From NCBI GenBank assembly GCA_035084275.1, contig CM068749.1:16182001-16246000 (forward strand): DNA of 64,000 nt. Reading direction: 5' to 3'. The position numbers and the translations under genes are program-made. Of the stretch, positions 14,744 through 36,830 are shown in pieces. The DNA comes from Hydrolagus colliei. Lineage: Eukaryota. The stretch's first letter is position 1, and each line of letters begins with the position of its first letter. The notes beneath the pieces were generated by a model, which had not been told where the DNA came from, did not search any database, and saw only the letters and a list, made by a program, of their open reading frames with translations.

Positions 14744-14788
14744 TAATTATCGTGTATGCGATGGCTACTATAACACGGATTTACCAGG
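14744..14788 (+). CDS. ADGRL2: ADGRL2 alternative ICL3 cassette exon (NNYRVCDGYYNTDLPG)
   Basis: Long pyrimidine tract, ccag|T, GG|gtaaga; 45 nt, phase 2 to 2, frame-preserving; peptide matches the latrophilin-2 ICL3 insert as I recall it. Confidence 0.9.
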
Positions 14789-15123: not shown

Positions 15124-15150
15124 CTATGAAGATAATAAGCCATATATCAA
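15124..15150 (+). CDS. ADGRL2: ADGRL2 alternative ICL3 microexon (YEDNKPYIK)
   Basis: tgctttctag|C, AA|gtaaga; 27 nt, phase 2 to 2; resembles the latrophilin YEDN(K/R)PFIK insert. Confidence 0.88.
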
Positions 15151-18318: not shown

Positions 18319-18447
18319 GTTCGGAAAGAATACAGCAAGTGTTTCCGTCATGCTTACTGTTGCAGCCGACTTAACACTGAAAGCTCCCACAGCTCAGTGA
18401 AGGCGTCGACTACAAGGACTAGTGCTCGGTATTCCTCTGGCACACAG
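18319..18447 (+). CDS. ADGRL2: ADGRL2 exon, helix 8 and proximal C-tail ([43 protein letters not shown])
   Basis: catag|GTT, CAG|gtacct; 129 nt, phase 0 to 0; absent from the ORF track in this frame. Confidence 0.95.
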
Positions 18448-20218: not shown

Positions 20219-22319
20219 GTAACATATGCAGTTGTTGCTTTCTCAATCCGTAAATATTGTCATCGAGGAGGACCACATAAAATACAGTCACTCCACTTGA
20301 TAGTCTAACTTGTGAAGCCTCTTGAGAGTCCTCCTGATGTGAAAGACTACTTTTTTTTAAAAGGTCAGCCAGGTGTCAAACACATACAGAAACTCATCAC
20401 CATGCATAATAATATCCAAATGGGACTGAAAGATTCATGCATTGCCACATACACATGAACATTCCTATGTTTGAGCACACAAATTGTTACTTTGCCCCTG
20501 AAATCATGAGTTTTCTTGATTTTTCTTTCAAACTTTAAGTAAAAAGCTTAAATCTCTCTCGCAGAGAGCTGCTTCAGCATTTGGATCAGGAGGACATCAC
20601 CTTGTCATAGGCTCACTGAGCAGCAAAGATGTCATACAATTATTCTACATATGTTCCTGTGTCATCAGCATACAATCAGCCAAGTGTTTCCTCATTTAAA
20701 TAAAACTTAAGATGATGTTACCTTCAAGATTTTGTAACTGCTGTCACTGTATATTTCCTGCTGATGCAGCAAGCCTGAAATTAATTTGGGAAACAATATT
20801 TCAGCAACATAAATCCAATGAATGTTTGCAAAGTTATAGATAACTCAGCAAGATGCACTGTGCATCTCCATATTAACAAATTGTGAAGTTGCAGTCTTAA
20901 GTTTCACACTCCCTGTGGGTATTTGTATTTACAAATTACAGACTCTATAAGGATTGCACAGATACAGATTTAAAAGCGCTTTCATATTCTGTAGTCACGT
21001 ACATAGTCAATTCTATTTTAAGTACATTTTACTTCCACATTGCTCTTGCTTCTCCAAATAATACTTTGAAATTGTCTGTATTCATTTCACTTAAAGAAAA
21101 ACAATTGTTATCGCCAAAGTATAATTTTTTTGTCTTAATGTCTGGTTTGATTTTTATATATTGGCATTTACAAATGTATGCAAATATAATTCCAGTTTAA
21201 AACTCACTGATTCCCCACAAAAGAGAAAGCTGCGCACCCGGTTAATGAATTGCACTTCATTCATAAGAAGAGATTTTCTTCAGAAACATTCCATGCAAGT
21301 TTGATTTCGTTCCATTGTATCTTGATGTTCTTCCTTTGCTCATATGGCCATCTCTTATTCAAGTTACATCTGTCCTATCTTCAGCCTTTGACCACTGTTA
21401 CACTTTGCTCCTTTGTTGTGAATATTCCTGATTGTTTTCAGTGTCACGTTGCCTGAGCAATTGTCTCTTTTCAGTCAAAGCACGTGAGGGAACCAAAATT
21501 CTTGCTTGGCTCCAGCCTAATATTTTTAGAATGAGGCCCTCAATCTGGGAGAATTAGAATAGATTCCTCAGTTAACGTCTTGTTATTTTCAAGCTTGCAC
21601 ATGCATATTACAATATGCTTACACATTACGTATGCGAAAGGCAACTTCCCCTTACTCTATCTCATACGTCTAGTTTTATCTGACGGAGGTAAAATGAGAG
21701 CTTCAGTCACAGTATACATAGTTAGTTTCTCCAGATTACCAACATGGCTCAGTTCATATTTGCATTTGACTCCTGAGGCGAGCTACAATTTTTACTAGCC
21801 AGCTCATTTTCTACTTTTCACCTCACACAAGTTCCTGGTCGGGATTTTTCCTCTATCAAGAGAGTAGTTTCGTGCCTTGTCAGTGTTGATTATAGGACTT
21901 GGCTTCAAATATTGGCGAACATCAATGAATCACTTTTTAAACTTTGCACCATTGATTTTTCTGGTAGTCACCCTTTCAGAAGTAAGCACCCAGACACAGG
22001 AGTGGTGTCACTGCCAATGTGCAGCAAGATTAATCAGTCAACCTTGCCTTTTGGTGCTCTCAATCCAATTGACAGGCTTGTTAAAAATGAATTTTGTGCA
22101 GTTCTATTCTGCCTGCCCATTTGAATGGCACCATGTTTCACATTATGTACAACAGTAATCTTTGGCCTTCTCTGTGCAGCTGTCACAGATAATAACATCA
22201 CCATAACAGTTATCCATGTTTATAAATGGAGATTAATGTTGCCTTTTTATTTCATGTATTGGGATCATTTTATTTAAAATTTGGCTAAAATATTTAATAG
22301 TTCCCCGCTTCAGACCACG

Positions 22320-22425: not shown

Positions 22426-23124
22426 ACCAACTAACATATTTAAAGTTGTTGAATAGGATGGATAACATTCAGCTTGCCTTTGAAATCGAGCAATTCTATG
22501 TTCATCTGTTGCCTCCATGACCACTTGTAAAACAGCTTTGTTTTTTGAGGTGACAATTATGGATTGTATGTTGTATAATAGCCTAAGAGAAATCATCATG
22601 TTTATCCAGCCTTCCATGCTTTTCATACCTTTGAGACTAATTCTTTCCCGGCATTAGTAATTTGCCTATTGGACCAGAACTTGCATTTATGAAGTAGGAG
22701 AGACAGTTCTCAAATGAAAGAAAAATAGTTTGTATTTTTAACTGTAGGTTGTCTTGGATGCTTAGAATGGGATCCTTTAGTTTGAAATGAAATTGGGATT
22801 AAAAGGCAGAATGGTTTTGGTTAGTCCCTATGTTATTGTGTAGAAAATTGGTTTTTTTTCCAGCATATGTTAATGAATCAATGAACTGTCACTCCCTGGT
22901 TCTGGAATTTAAAATTAACTAGTACATTGTCATTCTGTAATGTTTCTATGATCTAAACATTAATGGCAGGTACCTTAAATTATAGCTGTGTCCTGTAGAT
23001 AGCTTGTCTGTTTCATGAATGATGTTAAAACACAGTGATTCGTTTATAATATTTCATTTAGCGCCCTAGAGTTTTTTTTAAAAAGAGAGTAATTTTATTC
23101 ACCAGCCTTTTGGCCTATCCACAG

Positions 23125-23221
23125 AGCCGTATTAGAAGGATGTGGAATGACACTGTGCGAAAACAATCAGAATCTTCCTTTATCTCAGGTGAAATCAACA
23201 GCACTTCAACACTTAACCAAG
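23125..23221 (+). CDS. ADGRL2: ADGRL2 exon, C-tail ([32 protein letters not shown])
   Basis: cacag|AGC, CAAG|gtcagt; 97 nt, phase 0 to 1. Confidence 0.95.
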
Positions 23222-24024: not shown

Positions 24025-24537
24025 AGAATCATAGAATATTACAGCACAGAAGGAGGCCATTAGGCCCATCGTGCCTGTGCAGGCTGTTTGAAAGAGCTAC
24101 CCAATCAGTCCAATCCCACTCTTTCCCCATACAGGACTATGGAGTCCTGTAACTCAGTGATTGGAGCATTCGCCTTGCAAGCGTGAGACCTGTGTTCAAT
24201 TCCAAGTAGGTCAGGGCGAAACCTTAGGCAAGTTTCCTTACTCAACATGCCTAATAAAAATCCCTCCAAAAAAACCCAATAATAAAAAGATCATTTCAAT
24301 CCACGACTGTTTGTGGGACACTGCGGTGTGCAATTGCCTGCCACGTTTTGCCCACAAATATACAGTCAATTCACTTTTCAGCGTTTCGAGACGTCTAGAA
24401 GACGTGAAAAGCGCTATAATAATACAAAGATTATTATTATACCCCTGCAATTTTTTCCTTTTCAAGCACCTATTTCATTCCCTTTTGAAAGTTGTGATTG
24501 AATCTGTTTTGATCACCCTTTCAGGCAGTGCTTTCTA
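24025..24537 (-). mobile_element. CR1-type LINE 3' end, split by the SINE at 24133-24440
   Basis: aagaatcatagaat...acagcacagaaggaggccattaggcccatc...ctttccccata continues after the SINE as cccctgcaatttttt...cccttttgaaag...caggcagtg. Confidence 0.7.
24133..24440 (+). mobile_element. Near full-length tRNA-derived SINE (tRNA-Ala-like head, L2-like tail ending in (ATT)n)
   Basis: A-box-like TAACTCAGTGATTGG at 24150-24164, B-box GTTCAATTCC at 24194-24203; tail gagacgtctagaagacgtgaaaagcgctata...gattattattat shared with many copies in this window. Confidence 0.85.
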
Positions 24538-26703: not shown

Positions 26704-26832
26704 GGATGACGGGCAATTATCTACTAACAAATCCTCTTCTTCGACCTCATGGCACTAACAACCCTTATAACACTTTGCTTGCGGAAACTGTTGTATGTAA
26801 CGCTCCTTCAGCCGCTGTGTTTAGCTCACCAG
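26704..26832 (+). CDS. ADGRL2: ADGRL2 C-tail exon, skippable in frame ([43 protein letters not shown])
   Basis: tttag|GG, CCAG|gtgtgc; 129 nt, phase 1 to 1. Confidence 0.94.
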
Positions 26833-27346
26833 GTGTGCTTGATTACCTCTTCAAAACCATCATTAATGTACCTGGTAAAGGGCTTTTGTAGTGTAATTCT
26901 TAGGTTGCAAACCATGCAATGCTAATCCCAATCACATTGGTAATTGTAAAAGGGTTTCAAAATAATTTCAAAGTTAACATTGATGATCTTAATGCTCTAA
27001 AGATAGCAGAATTCTACCCTGGCTAAAAACTTGAGTTTTCCGTTTCTTAGTCATTTTATTAAATGAGGCATCCATATGGAAATAATTAATATTTTATTCA
27101 CAGCCATATTCTAGAATAGCAATGTCTGGAGTTAAAAAAAAACTTTAATATTCAAATGCTGTAAATGGATTTCAACTTGTTTTTTAAAATTGCTTCTGAT
27201 AATCTTAAATGATGAAAGTGAAATCTAGAGCTTTCAAAAGCAATTGTACATTGAAACATTTTGAACTTTTATCTGCTGTTTTGAACTTAACCAGAGTTGC
27301 TGCTTTATCAATTTTTTTTTGCTCTTTCCCTTATGCTTTCCTCTAG

Positions 27347-27398
27347 TGACCTACAGAGAGACAAGTATGGGAGTCAAACTTAACTTTGCCTATCAAAT
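27347..27398 (+). CDS. ADGRL2: ADGRL2 dual-donor alternative exon: 18-nt form 27347-27364 (VTYRET) or 52-nt frameshifting form (VTYRETSMGVKLNFAYQ)
   Basis: ctctag|TG acceptor; internal donor ACAA|gtatgg at 27365 and distal donor AAAT|gtaatt at 27399; resembles the latrophilin YRETSMGVKLNxAYQ segment. Confidence 0.85.
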
Positions 27399-28741
27399 GT
27401 AATTTTTTTTTCCAGCATGACATTTCTTTAAAAGAGGCAAAAAGAATAGATCACAAACATAACTGGCGGTCAAGAAGTAGACTCAGTGGGCAAGTGGTTC
27501 ACCGTGTGTTGTAAAGAGCTCTGGTGTCTCAGTTACAACACGGGCAGCATGAGAGAGCAATAGCACAGCTGACAGGATAAGGTTTACAGGCAGCTATTTT
27601 AAGAGGCCTAACATTTGAGCATGCTTGGTGCAAATTCAATTGGCAAGATACAATTTCATTTCAATTTCTTTGAATTAAAAAAAAATCCACAACTTAAAGC
27701 ATGCAGAATCTGTGCCTTATGTCCTGTGGACAGCCATCCCTGAATGAGCATCAGTTTCCTGACCGTTGATTAATTGTAGCCTGGTTTAGAGGGAACAATC
27801 TACTCATGATACGGCTCTTGCAGATACAAGCAAATGTGGCAAAACCCTTAACATAGCATCTGGACTGACCCGCCTCCCCCACCCCCAAAACACAAATTCT
27901 CGCAGTTATTTACGGGTGATGCTAAATTTTTGCAGTATTATTGAAGAGAACTGTTTCCTGCTGTCAGTACCAGCTCTTCTCCTCCTAGCCTTGCATACAA
28001 TGCAGCAGCCTCACAGTGGTCAGTTGCATTCTGCTCACACTGCTTCATTCTGTTTCCAGACACATTTGTCTCATTGGAGTGCGTCTCTTGTGATACATGA
28101 CCAAATAATGTGACTTCCCACAGCATGCTCTGCTCATCGCTTCACCTCATTTCTGTTTTGTTTTCTTTTCCCGTGATAAATGTTGCGTTAGCTGTTTTAC
28201 ATGTCTGTACTATAAAATAATTTTTTTAAATTTGTTTTAAAACATGTCACCATAAAATATCCATTTCTCCGAAAACTTCAAACCTCCTGCAGGCACGCTG
28301 AGTCTGTCATTCCTCCAGTAGCAGAAGATGTTAGCACTAGGTGACATCCTTTCCATTCCACAACTAACGTTTACTTTTCGACATTTTCTGTGACCATTCC
28401 TGGAAGAAATTTCTGACATTTCTTTTATTTTGACCTACAAGGCCATGGTTTCCATGGACCGATCTTTTCCTCTTGCAGCCTGAATGGGTTCATTCAGTGC
28501 TGTCACTGTGACTGATGCAGGCTGCTGGGCTGCAGGCAATCTTTGAACTTTTGAGGTCTCGGGGCAGCGACCAGCAAAAAATAAGTATTTTGCAATGTTT
28601 GCACACAAATTACATGTGGAGGAGGAAGAAAAAAAAATGCATTGATCTAATTTGCTGAACCCTTGCTCTGACTATTTGCTGAGATGTCGAGTGATCCTTC
28701 ATCATGTTACAATGATCATTGTACTTTCTTTTATATATCAG

Positions 28742-28793
28742 CTACTCTTAGACCAGATAGCCTGAGCAGACAGACTTGATGTGAGTTGTCCAA
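28742..28793 (+). CDS. ADGRL2: Putative ADGRL2 stop-containing cassette exon (ATLRPDSLSRQT* in phase 1; LLLDQIA* in phase 0)
   Basis: Acceptor tttcttttatatatcag|CT; two GTGAGT donors (28781, 28794); resembles the mammalian ADGRL2 truncating exon recalled as encoding LLLGQIA*. Confidence 0.6.
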
Positions 28794-29393
28794 GTGAGTC
28801 GTTCCACCCGCTGTCTATGGTGTTTTCGGATGATGCTTGTGGACCCGAATACTTGTAGCGTGAAGGATGACTGGCTGTGTTTGTCATGCTTACTTTGTAT
28901 TTGTCCATTTTTTCCATCCTTTATTTACCTCCATGATGTTTCACTAGAGAAGGACTGTTAAGTAGTTGCCTGCTAGTGTCTGGGTTTCCTTTGTACGTTG
29001 ATTTGCACCCACTTTGTGTAGATTGTATTTTTTTCCAATGTCAGATTTAAGGTTGTTCAGGACAAAACCCACTTTGTTTTGTCTTTTGCATATTGCATAA
29101 AATCCCGCAGTATCTATTGGTTCTGCATTAAATATGCAAGGGTGTGGAGTGTGAAAGCAATTGTACAGGTAAACACTGAAAATTTCCATCTTTCCCTTCA
29201 CCACAGATTAAAATATGAATTATTTAAATCATGAGGGCAAAGGGTTTTTTTCTTCTCTTTCAGATATTTTTATCCTGAACGCTGTACAAATTTTAGCATC
29301 ATCATTTTGTCCTGAACTACATTAAAGTTTTTCCTACTTGGAGAAAAATGCAAATTTACTGCTTGTATTGAAATGTCTCTCCTGTTGTTTCAG

Positions 29394-30151
29394 GCCATTC
29401 ACTGAACAACGCCAGGGATACAAGTGCAATGGATACTCTACCACTTAATGGAAACTTCAACAATAGCTACTCAATTCGAAATGGGGACTTCACTAATGAC
29501 AGCGTGCAGGTAGTTGACTGTGGTATGAGCCTGGGTGACACTGCTTTTGAAAAGATGATCATTTCTGAACTTGTGCACAACAATCTTCGAGGAGTAAACA
29601 AGAACCATAACATTGATCGCAACTTGCCAAACAAAGTGGTCGTTGGTGGTGGAAGCAGCAGCGAAGATGATGCCATCGTAGCAGATGCATCGTCTTTGGT
29701 GCACGGGGACAGCACTGGGGAACATCACCATAAAGAGCTTGAAGCCCCACTGATTCCTCAACGAACTCACTCTCTTCTGTACCATCAGCAGAAAAAAGTG
29801 AAGCTTGAAGCGAACGACCCTTATGTTGCTGAGCTTACAGTAGCGGTAGAAGATCACCTGCAATCCCCCAACAGAGACTCCCTTTACACTAGCATGCCCA
29901 ACCTGAGAGACTCTCCTTATCCAGAGAGTAGCCCAGAAGCTGAAGAAGACTTGTCGCCCTCCAAAAGGAGTGAAAATGAGGATGTTTACTACAAGAGCAT
30001 GCCCAATCTCGGTGCTGGCAACCAACTCCAGACATACTATCAAATCAGCAGGGGCAATAGTGATGGATATATTATTCCTATTAACAAGGAAGGATGTATT
30101 CCAGAAGGGGATGTGAGGGAAGGACAGATGCAGCTAGTAACAAGTCTGTAA
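29394..30151 (+). CDS. ADGRL2: ADGRL2 last coding exon ([27 protein letters not shown]...[10 protein letters not shown]), class I PDZ-binding motif VTSL
   Basis: ttcag|GC acceptor (phase 1), open frame to TAA at 30149-30151; matches the 240-aa ORF of the track. Confidence 0.97.
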
Positions 30152-30772: not shown

Positions 30773-30778
30773 AATAAA
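30773..30778 (+). terminator. Proximal polyadenylation signal AATAAA
   Basis: AATAAA hexamer with TGTA motifs just upstream. Confidence 0.45.
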
Positions 30779-31809: not shown

Positions 31810-32230
31810 TGTCCTAAAATATCGTCTGCACGTTTCAAATTTTAGCCTTTAAATCTACTGTAAAGCTACATATTTTCATAGCAAATTAATTTTAGCGTTA
31901 TATGCCAATGGCCCATTAGGTTCAACATTTTAATTATGGCTGACAGTTTACATTACAATTATGTAATTACCATAACATTAAATGGGAGCCTATTAGTTTG
32001 ATTGAATATTTAGGTTAAAAAAAGTCAATTTTGTGGTTGTAAGCTAAATATTATTCATAATCAATATTTTGCATCTTATTATTTAAACTAAGTACATATA
32101 TTGTTTTGTCTCTGGATGATGGCCCCAATCTAGGTGAGGTGTGTAATGATTATCTATATTTTAAATTAGGAATGATACAAAGATGGTCCCGGGAAAAAAA
32201 TCCGAACTTGTTCCAGAGGACAGTCAAAGC

Positions 32231-33621: not shown

Positions 33622-35179
33622 GACATTGAAGTCAATTACAGCACGTCACCTGCCACTGCAGCTGATGCTAAGCACAGATGGGGGAAACAAATCTGGGACA
33701 TTTCTGATCTGTACAGATCAGATTCACTGCAGGCAGTGGCTTTACCGAGTAATTTGGTCTTCTGCATTTTAATTTCAAATGGCATATTCCCTTGTGAAAA
33801 TACTGTGTTACATGGGAGCATTAAACTGTGATGTTGCTGGAAATATTGCTTAGTTCTTATTGTTATGATCATCATAATCATTTAGCAAAGTAATGATTAT
33901 AGTCCCCAAACCTAATTAAAATGTTATCAATGGTTAAAGTTTCTGTAATTGTATGTATTACACAATATTTCAATTGCATTCCAAATTAAGCGAGTAAGCT
34001 AAATAAATATTTGTTTCATGTTAAATATAGTGCAGAATTATTAACTAAACTTCGAAGCAATCTTTGGATCTCAAGCTTTCCACTATTGCAAAGAATGGTA
34101 AAGGCCTTGGGTCTGCGGTTTGTACAGCTTTATTACCCAAATGTACAAGTGATTATTGCTCAAAGCTCAGTGATGAGGAAAATAGGTGTGGAGCAGAGTT
34201 CAGGTTCTGTATTAGTTAACATAGTAAATCTGTCAGAGTTTAGTGATCCAGGTTATGATACAACACAACAAATCATCGCTGTAAAATTTTAATTACAGTA
34301 ACAGCAAAAAGATTTACATCAGAGAGCTGAAACTCTTATTTAGAAAATTGTCTACTAAGCATCCATTTCTCTTCCATCCATCCAAAGCTATTAATCTTCA
34401 GGGGCATGGGTCTGCAGTCAGTTTTAATCAATCATTAATAATGGTCATTTACCTCCAGGAATCTACTGCTATGAATTGATCTTTATCCTTTTATCCATAT
34501 TTCAGTTGTATAAACCTTCCCACATCAAAATAATCAATACAATGTGCTCCTTTTATATTCTGCTTGTTTTTCTGTGATGACATTACGTTTGCACAGCAGT
34601 GTTGAAGTTGACAATGAAATACTCTGGATTAATTGTTACACCATTCACCACTTCCAAAAAACACAGTTAAGTGAGAAGTTTATCCTAATGATTCTAAACA
34701 TCTGAATTAATTTAATAGAAATTTTAGGACGTCAATTGCTTTGCAAAAAAGACTTATTTTGTGCTGCCAACCAGGCTGGACAGCCTAGGCTGTGAGGCTT
34801 TTATAGCTGCTGTCAGATACTTCTCGATCAATTGTGTGAATGTCCATCATTTCATTGAGACTAATCTTCTCATGTGTCGGTGCTCTGGGACACCATCCGG
34901 TGTGAAAGCAGATATAGAAATGTTAGTTGGCGTTGTTGTGTTTCCTCTACTCCTGTCAATTGCCAATTAGTGAAAATTTGTCTATAATGATTGCAGAGTT
35001 TTAAGGGATCAGTCGTATTCATTTAGTTCATGTCGCTAAGAATCTGTAGATTCTTTGATATTCATGCTCATTGGTTTACAAATACAACCTCGATATCAAT
35101 CATATCAAAATTTATCACTTTTTAAAAAAACTTCTCCATCCCATATACTTACCCATGAAAACCATGTGATGTTTGAAGA

Positions 35180-35685
35180 CCCTCCTCTCCAACTGTGCTT
35201 ATGGTCACCTATGACCACATCGCCGACTCCATTGGCTCCCCATCACCCAGAGGATTCAATTCAAGATCCTGTTCCTCACATTCAAAGCCCTCCGTGGCCT
35301 CGTCCCTCACTACCCCTATGACCTCCTAACCCCCTACCAACTTGCCCGCTTCCTCTGCTCAGCAGGCTATGGCCTGCTTCATGTCCCCCGACCCATGCGC
35401 CCACCGTTGGCAGGCGAGACTTCAGCCACTCTGCCTCTAACCTATGGAACTCCATCCCACAGTCCCTCTGCCTCTCCCCCACCCACCCCTAACTTCCTTC
35501 AAGTTCCTGCCTCAAGACCCTCCTCTTCGACGGTCCCTTTGGTCACCCCAATTACCCCCCCTTTCCCTCCATCTTCCCCCGTCCCTGACCCCAGCTCAGG
35601 TCTGAAACAATGAGTGTCCAGCGCCTTGGAACGTCCTCCTGACATGACAGGCGCTGTACAGGTATAATTTTCTTGTTATTGTTGT
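35180..35685 (+). mobile_element. L2-type LINE 3' fragment
   Basis: From 35227 translates LHWLPITQRIQFKILFLTFKALRGLVPHYPYDLL, the characteristic L2 ORF2 C-terminal motif; tail cagcgccttggaacg...ggcgctgtaca...ttgttg. Confidence 0.8.
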
Positions 35686-36449
35686 GCACATTTGTTTCAC
35701 CTGTGGATTTATGATACAGTATTTAGGAATTATTGCAACAATGCCCCTCAAACAAAGGTCACAGTTAGCATCAGGGATTACTGCTACTTCCATGGGTGGT
35801 ACTAGGAATTGTTGCACATGAGATATTTGAAAGAAACTAAAACTACCCTATAATTTCTTTTCTGGTTTGCGCTGCTTTATGTTAAGCCTATATCCACTGT
35901 TGTACTCAGCAAGCTGCATGCAATAATGGATTGAACTCACAAATAGAAAACTCACTGATTCTTCCTTGAACACAAACACAGTGCTCAATCTCTGTCCTTG
36001 TGTGCTTACTGTGAATGTTACAATTCGGTGTGCTCACTGGTATTTCCTCTTGTACTCTAGATACTGATTGTTTTTATATTTTCCTCTGTGCAGTTATATT
36101 TTGCTGGAGTATTGATTTATTTTCCTTTCCGTAATTTGTTCATTTTGCTTGCATACGTATTATCGGTCTTGCAACCGAGGACAAAATAATTACATTTTTC
36201 TTAACTTCATTTATTTTGATGTGCCACTGATTTCTGGTTGTCTAACCACATTATTAAAAATGATAACCTAATTGTAAAAGCAGGGTCATTAAAATCCTAT
36301 GCCTGAACTATTGCTTAATCTGTTGTCTCTAGCTAAACCCTTTGCTGAATATCGAAATATTCATTTGGCTATTCTATTTTTCTTCTTCTAGTAACAGTGA
36401 AACTCAGTTTAAATGTCACCCATTACTGTGATATGCTTTTTGTAGCTCA

Positions 36450-36830
36450 TTATATATGGCTTCCCGCCATCCCTCCCCCCCACCGCATGCTCCAACCTCT
36501 GTACATCAAATTCAAGATCCCTGTTCTTCCATTTAAATCCCTCCCCTTCCCTCACCCTACCCTACTTCTGCGGCCTCCTAAAATCCTCCCATCTTGCTGC
36601 ATCCTCCACTCAGCTGACATCGTCTGCTTTCTCCTGCCCAATCTGACCTCCACCCCAACTCTCTGGCACTCTGTCTGCATTCCTTCAGCCCATCCCTCCC
36701 CACCATAAATTCCACCTTAAACCTTTCATTTCTATCGCAATTTTGGTCACCATTCCTCCTTGCCTAGGTCAAGTCTCCCCACCTCAGCTCCCACTTGGCT
36801 CCATTAAGAGCCTTGAGACATCCTCCCAAT
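36450..36830 (+). mobile_element. Degraded L2-type LINE 3' fragment
   Basis: WLP...IKFKIPVLPFKSL remnant, C-rich body, agagccttgagacatcctccc tail. Confidence 0.6.

Follow-up and report, generated by a model that had tools for sequence, protein, structure and literature searches.

Predicted alternative C-terminal tails at the 3′ end of a likely holocephalan ADGRL2 gene

The window analysed here is a stretch of 64,000 nucleotides (nt) of contig CM068749.1 (positions 16,182,001 to 16,246,000) and likely holds the 3′ end of the latrophilin gene ADGRL2, judged from protein matches to come from a holocephalan near, yet distinct from, the Callorhinchus milii reference. Latrophilins help decide the sites of synapse formation. 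The element in question is a small exon upstream of the last coding exon with one acceptor and two donors, giving forms of 18 and 52 nt. An earlier, sequence-only reading of this DNA had described it as a switch of the last exon's reading frame.

The three pieces scanned against Pfam all gave hits, namely the secretin-like seven-transmembrane (7TM) domain (PF00002, E 2e-22) and the latrophilin C-terminal region (PF02354, E 1e-97 and 1e-17). The 7TM domain precedes the C-terminal region, ADGRL2 is the nearest gene exon by exon, and the PDZ-binding motif VTSL is present, as in a latrophilin. For protein comparisons, 498 proteins were fetched, with highly redundant isoforms among them; the matches considered were the best 120 of 1,048, 120 of 196, and 120 of 202. 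The closest protein is C. milii ADGRL2. Among the best 120 of 1,048 matches, the named proteins are all ADGRL2 or latrophilin-2, and the others are unnamed hypothetical proteins. Eleven of the 14 blocks aligned to C. milii model P0001 are 95–100% identical; the remaining three are poorly modelled junction regions. The last exon is 99% identical to P0001 vs 83–87% to bony vertebrates, and the true exon blocks are 58–100% identical to bony-vertebrate ADGRL2. These values agree with the earlier placement of the host as a basal jawed vertebrate.

The positions proposed earlier for the acceptor, both donors and the last exon all hold (Table 1). Translated across the predicted junctions, skipping of the dual-donor exon gives 252 residues past the upstream exon and the 18-nt form gives 258; VTSL is the C-terminus in both cases. 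For the 52-nt form the count is 35, and the tail closes with YSTT before TAA 29446–29448. Thus the junction translations agree with the claim that the shorter form keeps the frame and the longer one loses the PDZ motif. Both donors score 1.9 in a crude matrix (3.7 and 4.4 for two upstream donors), and their equality loosely fits donor competition. Read-through beyond the second donor meets an immediate stop, where four fetched proteins end. The acceptor and both GT donors are spaced as in mouse Adgrl3 exons 30a and 30b, which are 18 and 52 nt long (PMC13108381 Table 4). The anatomy of the Lphn3-type switch is therefore present, and the 52-nt form would lead to a homologous short tail, two residues shorter than that of relatives.

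The two-way switch stands as regards the dual donors, but as a description of the 3′ end it is incomplete. The arrangement is multi-way, with a 39-nt stop exon in the same intron and a third reading frame of the last exon. This third frame would open on splicing from the phase-0 donor at 18447; it is seen in C. milii model P0332, whose C-terminus is GTQAIH, and three lizard proteins have the counterpart GTQDIH at theirs.

Table 1 Features of the ADGRL2 3′ end, in window coordinates
Feature	Position	Strand	Remark
Exon equivalent to mouse Adgrl2 exon 26	18319..18447	+	phase-0 end; joined directly to last exon would give third frame, tail end QAIH then stop
97-nt exon (mouse 27b)	23125..23221	+	internal GT after 23188 gives 64-nt form resembling mouse 27a (mouse exon table, PMC13108381)
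Upstream cassette exon (mouse exon 28)	26704..26832	+	129 nt, phase 1-1, 43 codons; part of PF02354
Acceptor of dual-donor exon	AG ends 27346, exon opens 27347	+	long pyrimidine tract before AG
18-nt form of dual-donor exon	27347..27364	+	frame-keeping microexon, equivalent of Lphn3 E30a; GT after 27364
34-nt extension to second donor (gives 52-nt form)	27365..27398	+	frame-shifting, equivalent of Lphn3 E30b; GT after 27398
Four GCATG motifs (27415, 27547, 27619, 27699)	27415..27703	+	candidate RBFOX-type downstream enhancer cluster, putative role
39-nt stop-containing cassette exon (mouse Adgrl2 exon 30 homologue)	28742..28780	+	same intron; missed by the sequence-only reading
Last coding exon, main frame	29394..30151	+	251 whole codons; latrophilin C-terminal region, PF02354, E 1e-97
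Dual-coded start of last exon	29394..29448	+	shifted frame stops 2 codons before the K/E-W end of relatives
Third reading frame of last exon	29394..29405	+	AIH then stop, 3 codons; stop 29403-29405
Class I PDZ-binding motif VTSL at C-terminus	30137..30148	+	TAA next at 30149-30151; putative role, by likeness to LPHN3 motif (PMC10830413)

The 34-nt extension is conserved well outside this lineage. Its 10 private codons match 10/10 in ADGRL2 of bird, frog, bichir, sturgeon, and wrasse, and 9/10 in ADGRL3 of human, skate, and zebrafish (all eight proteins compared). These codons would be intronic if the second donor were unused; yet their residues are kept, beyond what chance would give. Twenty fetched ADGRL2 proteins, which come from birds, geckos, frogs, bichir, sturgeon, and teleosts, contain the 52-nt form and then the last exon in the shifted frame. 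The same holds for 133 fetched ADGRL3 proteins, with sources in mammals, birds, reptiles, a newt, teleosts, and the skate Rhinoraja (models P0279 and P0280). Most of these shifted-tail proteins are predicted models. The Lphn3 tail cited in the sequence-only reading matches these ADGRL3 proteins, and conservation of both the extension and the alternative frame in other species, on which that reading had staked its case, is borne out. The 18-nt form is present in 76 fetched long-tail proteins and is annotated in one of the 12 C. milii cluster members (RefSeq model P0330). A 42-nt in-frame extension of exon 28 (26833–26874, + strand, donor after 26874), seen in 3/12 C. milii models, was set aside as a likely model artefact, because the same models lack the first last-exon residues and no bony-vertebrate spliced protein contains it.

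As the design is found in holocephalan ADGRL2 and in skate ADGRL3, the 18/52-nt exon and its shifted frame likely arose before the two genes split, judged from these sequences. The earlier suggestion that the switch predates the paralogue duplication is thus supported for ADGRL2 and ADGRL3; for ADGRL1 only the 18-nt exon was seen (P0454, P0497; mouse Adgrl1 exon 26). Among the matches listed (best 120 of 196 and 120 of 202, cluster representatives searched) there is no ADGRL1 with a 52-nt form. The six-residue insert is in neither of two Lampetra latrophilin proteins, which decides nothing because the exon is optional. Together, the holocephalan ADGRL2 and the skate ADGRL3 provide independent confirmation of a switch older than the gene split.

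The alternative frame is open for 17 codons of the last exon before the early TAA. The length of the open frame was dropped as evidence, as 24% of 20,000 synonymous shuffles open an equally long one. We used instead a constraint test based on the main-frame third bases, which are the first bases of the shifted codons; these were inferred from the short tails of nine relatives, conditioned on the open frame. In all nine comparisons, 10–12 of the 13 informative third bases match the window, vs 5.5 expected at saturation, given the codon usage of the gene (P 0.009–0.0001). At a background of 49% (mouse Adgrl2 downstream, 18/37 by eye) the same matches give P 0.04–0.001. By eye, mouse Adgrl3 is equal at 12/15 third positions and 49/54 nt of the dual-coded stretch, and mouse Adgrl1, for which only the 18-nt exon is listed, is equal at 2/7 third positions in shared codons. 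These counts support the dual-coding constraint that the earlier reading proposed where the last exon begins. Main-frame synonymous sites have likely been held by selection on the second frame since before the ADGRL2/ADGRL3 split.

All 153 fetched shifted tails (20 ADGRL2 and 133 ADGRL3) end K-W or E-W; here the end is YSTT. The early TAA is made by a main-frame Leu codon, CTT, and with the Gly codon GGA the ancestral stop position now reads AAA. Both changes are silent in the main frame. The criteria of Tress et al. accept one or two disruptions per clade (10.64898/2026.05.28.727796). In mouse Adgrl1 exon 27 (PMC13108381 Table 2), the shifted frame read by eye has a stop at the codon of the window's early TAA, and the shifted residues are not conserved; this match is likely a coincidence of the CTT Leu codon. 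In the open-licence literature we found nothing on the shifted stop.

The 39-nt exon scored best of 2,564 AG positions scanned (score 54, next 22). It reads ATLRPDSLSRQT followed by a stop in phase 1, IYS and a stop after the 52-nt form, and LLLDQIA and a stop in phase 0; the stop lies one base before its donor. The phase-1 peptide ATLRPDSLSRQT agrees at 12/12 residues with the ends of isoforms from bird, lizard, and gar, and SRQT is the terminus of 40 fetched proteins. The IYS end after the 52-nt form is also found in crane and bichir-family isoforms. At the nucleotide level, mouse exon 30 equals the exon at 36/39 positions by eye (PMC13108381). A search of the open-licence literature returned nothing on this exon in cartilaginous fish. 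Just downstream (28781–28799, + strand), the exon has a second strong GT after 28793, which would make a 52-nt form of it (matrix 5.0 vs 3.5); the stop is upstream of both donors, so the choice between them would not alter the protein.

Other exon-like signals lie in the same intron. At 28319–28370 (+), an acceptor at 28319 opens a possible 22-nt exon, the seven bases after AG 28340 are, by eye, those with which mouse exon 29b begins, and ACTAAC is at 28363; this segment is possibly a remnant of a mouse 29b-type exon, or chance. At 28479–28536 (+), a strong-looking acceptor at 28479 (score 9.3) has no nearby GT donor, and no fetched protein matches. A search for a mouse exon 29a/29b homologue or an E32-like last exon (2,564 AG positions from 18454, with lizard, mouse, and cyprinid tails, plus a short-motif scan) gave only noise; nothing in this window clearly matches the mouse 29a/29b exon.

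The surroundings of the dual-donor exon suggest how its donors may be chosen. The 18-nt form is frame-keeping and of microexon size, and TGC is found at −13 and −27 of the 27347 acceptor, a weak sign because TGC is common. The SRRM4-type microexon rule calls for 3–27 nt, a kept frame, and TGC close upstream of the acceptor. Downstream, the GCATG cluster is the densest 310-nt one of the window (Poisson P 1.6e-4, window size chosen post hoc), and it contains no full TGCATG. With weak and equal donors, TGC upstream, and the GCATG cluster downstream, donor choice would probably be set by neural splicing factors. We infer control by RBFOX and SRRM4 from general motif rules only, and the papers listed in a literature search include none linking this exon to SRRM4. 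The mouse counterpart of the upstream cassette exon, exon 28, is included in neurons and skipped in endothelium (PMC13108381).

If the second donor were chosen, the last exon would be read in the shifted frame and the receptor would end in a short tail that lacks the PDZ-binding terminus. The predicted truncating stops fall 55 nt into the last exon, or precede the final junction by 1 and 29 nt. Under the established 50-nt rule for junction-dependent decay, spliced messenger RNAs (mRNAs) with stops in the last exon, or this close upstream of the final junction, should escape, and the truncated-tail mRNAs would yield intact 7TM receptors with short tails. Counted after the HCALQKK anchor, the tails would be about 50 residues long in the third frame, about 140–160 in the short forms, and about 380 in the long form, with only the long ones ending VTSL. 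The tails are probably disordered.

In mouse Lphn3, E30b shifts the frame of E31 and moves the coupling of LPHN3 from Gs to G12/13 (Wang et al. 2024, PMC10830413). E30b makes up 20–25% of ribosome-associated Lphn3 mRNA and is higher in inhibitory neurons. By likeness to E30b, the short form of ADGRL2 would likely move coupling from Gs towards G12/13, and without VTSL it would not be expected to bind SHANK/PSD95-type scaffolds. Scaffold recruitment needs the PDZ motif, and in the accessible text of PMC10830413 it was assayed on E31, E32, and ΔPBM, not on E30b, so scaffold loss by E30b is presumed. Accordingly, of the two effects that the sequence-only reading had named for the Lphn3 switch, altered G-protein coupling is established for E30b, but altered scaffold recruitment is putative. 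Human LPHN2 tail variants of 34–366 residues differ in G13 activation and arrestin-3 recruitment (PMC12236479).

We regard it as quite probable that the dual-donor exon works as a switch, abolishing scaffold binding and retuning signalling. Several points weigh against this, or against constraint on the shifted peptide. That this species makes the 52-nt form is a prediction from sequence; all 12 C. milii cluster members lack both that form and the 39-nt exon, and the proteins listed include no ADGRL2 from a shark or ray. For mouse Adgrl2, no 18/52-nt exon appears in the exon table of PMC13108381. Compared by eye with mouse Adgrl2, 12/18 third positions are equal in the dual stretch vs 18/37 downstream (Fisher P 0.17), and two synonymous changes in the mouse dual stretch alter the shifted peptide. 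The nine third-base comparisons share ancestry and hence are not independent. Splicing enhancers could also constrain the first 55 nt of the exon and give part of the signal. In addition, the shifted tail ends two codons early, without the terminal Trp of all 153 fetched tails, and human LPHN2 tail variants follow no simple short-tail rule for G13 activation in the accessible text of PMC12236479.

In a rival reading the switch exists, yet only the loss of the long tail matters. The shifted peptide would then be filler, and its third bases would be held by exon-start enhancers and by the need for an early stop. This explanation is partly compatible with a working switch, and it draws on the stop that moved two codons here through main-frame-silent changes, on the tolerance of mouse Adgrl2 for changes in the shifted peptide (by eye), and on the several other routes that also truncate the tail. 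It fits poorly with the 9–10/10 extension residues kept across paralogues, with third bases, for instance the A in a rare Leu codon, that are common to ADGRL2 and ADGRL3 but not to Adgrl1, and with LPHN2 variants in which small tail differences change signalling (PMC12236479). We consider it rather unlikely.

An early stop could also mean that selection on the second frame has relaxed, with the 52-nt form a decaying remnant in holocephalans, which would use only skipping and the 18-nt form. The absence of the 52-nt form from all 12 C. milii models agrees with this, as does the second donor, weak in the crude matrix (1.9 vs 3.7 and 4.4 upstream). However, the score of 1.9 is shared by the donor of the 18-nt form, and C. 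milii model P0330 uses that donor. The extension retains its GT and 10/10 residues, and 10–12 of the 13 informative third bases are kept; sequence idle since the holocephalan divergence should have drifted. We judge a remnant distinctly improbable. Conserved small stop-bearing exons are often poison exons, and the short forms leave a long 3′ untranslated region (UTR). The 52-nt form and the 39-nt exon might thus lower ADGRL2 through nonsense-mediated decay with no stable protein. Against this are the predicted stop positions (55 nt into the last exon, or 1 and 29 nt short of the final junction), the conservation of residues and not of stops alone, and the share of E30b in ribosome-associated Lphn3 mRNA (20–25%). 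We give this explanation very little weight.

Returning to the working switch, we add a broader proposal that we hold tentatively. The ADGRL2 3′ end may be a graded dial of tail length, of jawed-vertebrate age or older, with two exons that are each multi-frame, the 39-nt exon in up to three frames and the last exon, and at least six C-termini that would all avoid decay. In the chimaera, silent changes moved the stop and removed an otherwise invariant Trp, which points to the conserved QGYKC segment, or to plain tail removal, and not to the C-terminus, as what the short isoform may need. If so, chimaeras are a natural experiment on which part of the short tail matters.

Further observations concern the rest of the locus. 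Extra residues that C. milii model P0001 has inserted between exons 26 and 27 map in part to 21924–22037 and 23107–23124 (+); the other proteins displayed are without them. In the region of the third intracellular loop, small in-frame exons lie at 14744–14788 (45 nt) and 15124–15150 (27 nt) on the + strand. Their lengths are those of mouse Adgrl2 exons 23 and 24 and of a sturgeon model, so loop-3 splice sites are likewise present in this holocephalan. AATAAA at 30773 and 31461 (+) could end the 3′ UTR. No other gene is evident at 32000–64000 among open reading frames of at least 90 codons. Repeat-like sequence is found, by appearance only, at 24135–24300 and 35000–36700 (resembling a tRNA-derived short interspersed element, and reading frames like the tail of a long interspersed element).

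The feature is real, ancient, and known, and the sequence-only reading proved right in the main. Both proposals of the sequence-only reading, on the age of the switch and on dual coding, are already published (Wang 2024, PMC10830413; Tress et al. preprint, 10.64898/2026.05.28.727796). The additions made here are the 39-nt stop exon, the third frame, and the stop moved by two codons, and the gain is a fuller map with a usable two-residue natural variant. Further sources were PMC6629964, PMC8584163, and 10.1101/2025.10.24.682442, the preprint of PMC13108381. A second dual-coding preprint, 10.64898/2026.02.24.707805, gave no mention of ADGRL in a term search.

Tress et al. describe a triple-coding region in the same genes, ADGRL2 and ADGRL3, with three frames conserved across jawed vertebrates; the elephant shark was one of the genomes they examined. 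The three frames of the present locus lead us to infer that their region is this exon. In their account, one ADGRL2 frame that reference sets leave unannotated reaches the dS/dS threshold (a ratio of at least 2.5) and corresponds to an annotated frame in a paralogue; the present locus marks this short isoform, unannotated in human reference sets according to the 2026 preprint. Of the features by which they recognise such regions, conserved frame-changing splice sites are present here, and suppressed synonymous change is seen (10–12/13 sites in 9/9 comparisons), weakly vs mouse Adgrl2. Unlike our analysis, the accessible text of the preprint is without coordinates or sequence and without the shifted stop or the 39-nt exon.

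ADGRL1 has an 18-nt exon in the corresponding position ahead of its last exon (exon 26 in mouse Adgrl1), but differs in having no 52-nt form listed or fetched and in its third bases at shared codons (2/7 equal, by eye). The short-tail ADGRL2 isoforms of bony vertebrates (P0122 bird, P0128 frog, P0433 bichir, P0440 sturgeon) have the same exon combinations and near-identical residues, but end K-W. Mouse Adgrl3 E30a/30b (PMC10830413, PMC13108381) has the same anatomy, with one acceptor, 18- and 52-nt forms, and a longer form that shifts the exon carrying the PDZ motif; 14/17 residues of the 52-nt form are equal. It differs in paralogue and species, in its tail end (YSTTEW there, YSTT here), and in that the present locus has the extra 39-nt stop exon, has no E32-like last exon found downstream, and is described from sequence. 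In mouse Lphn3 this exon choice alters G-protein coupling, hence the interest in its ADGRL2 version.

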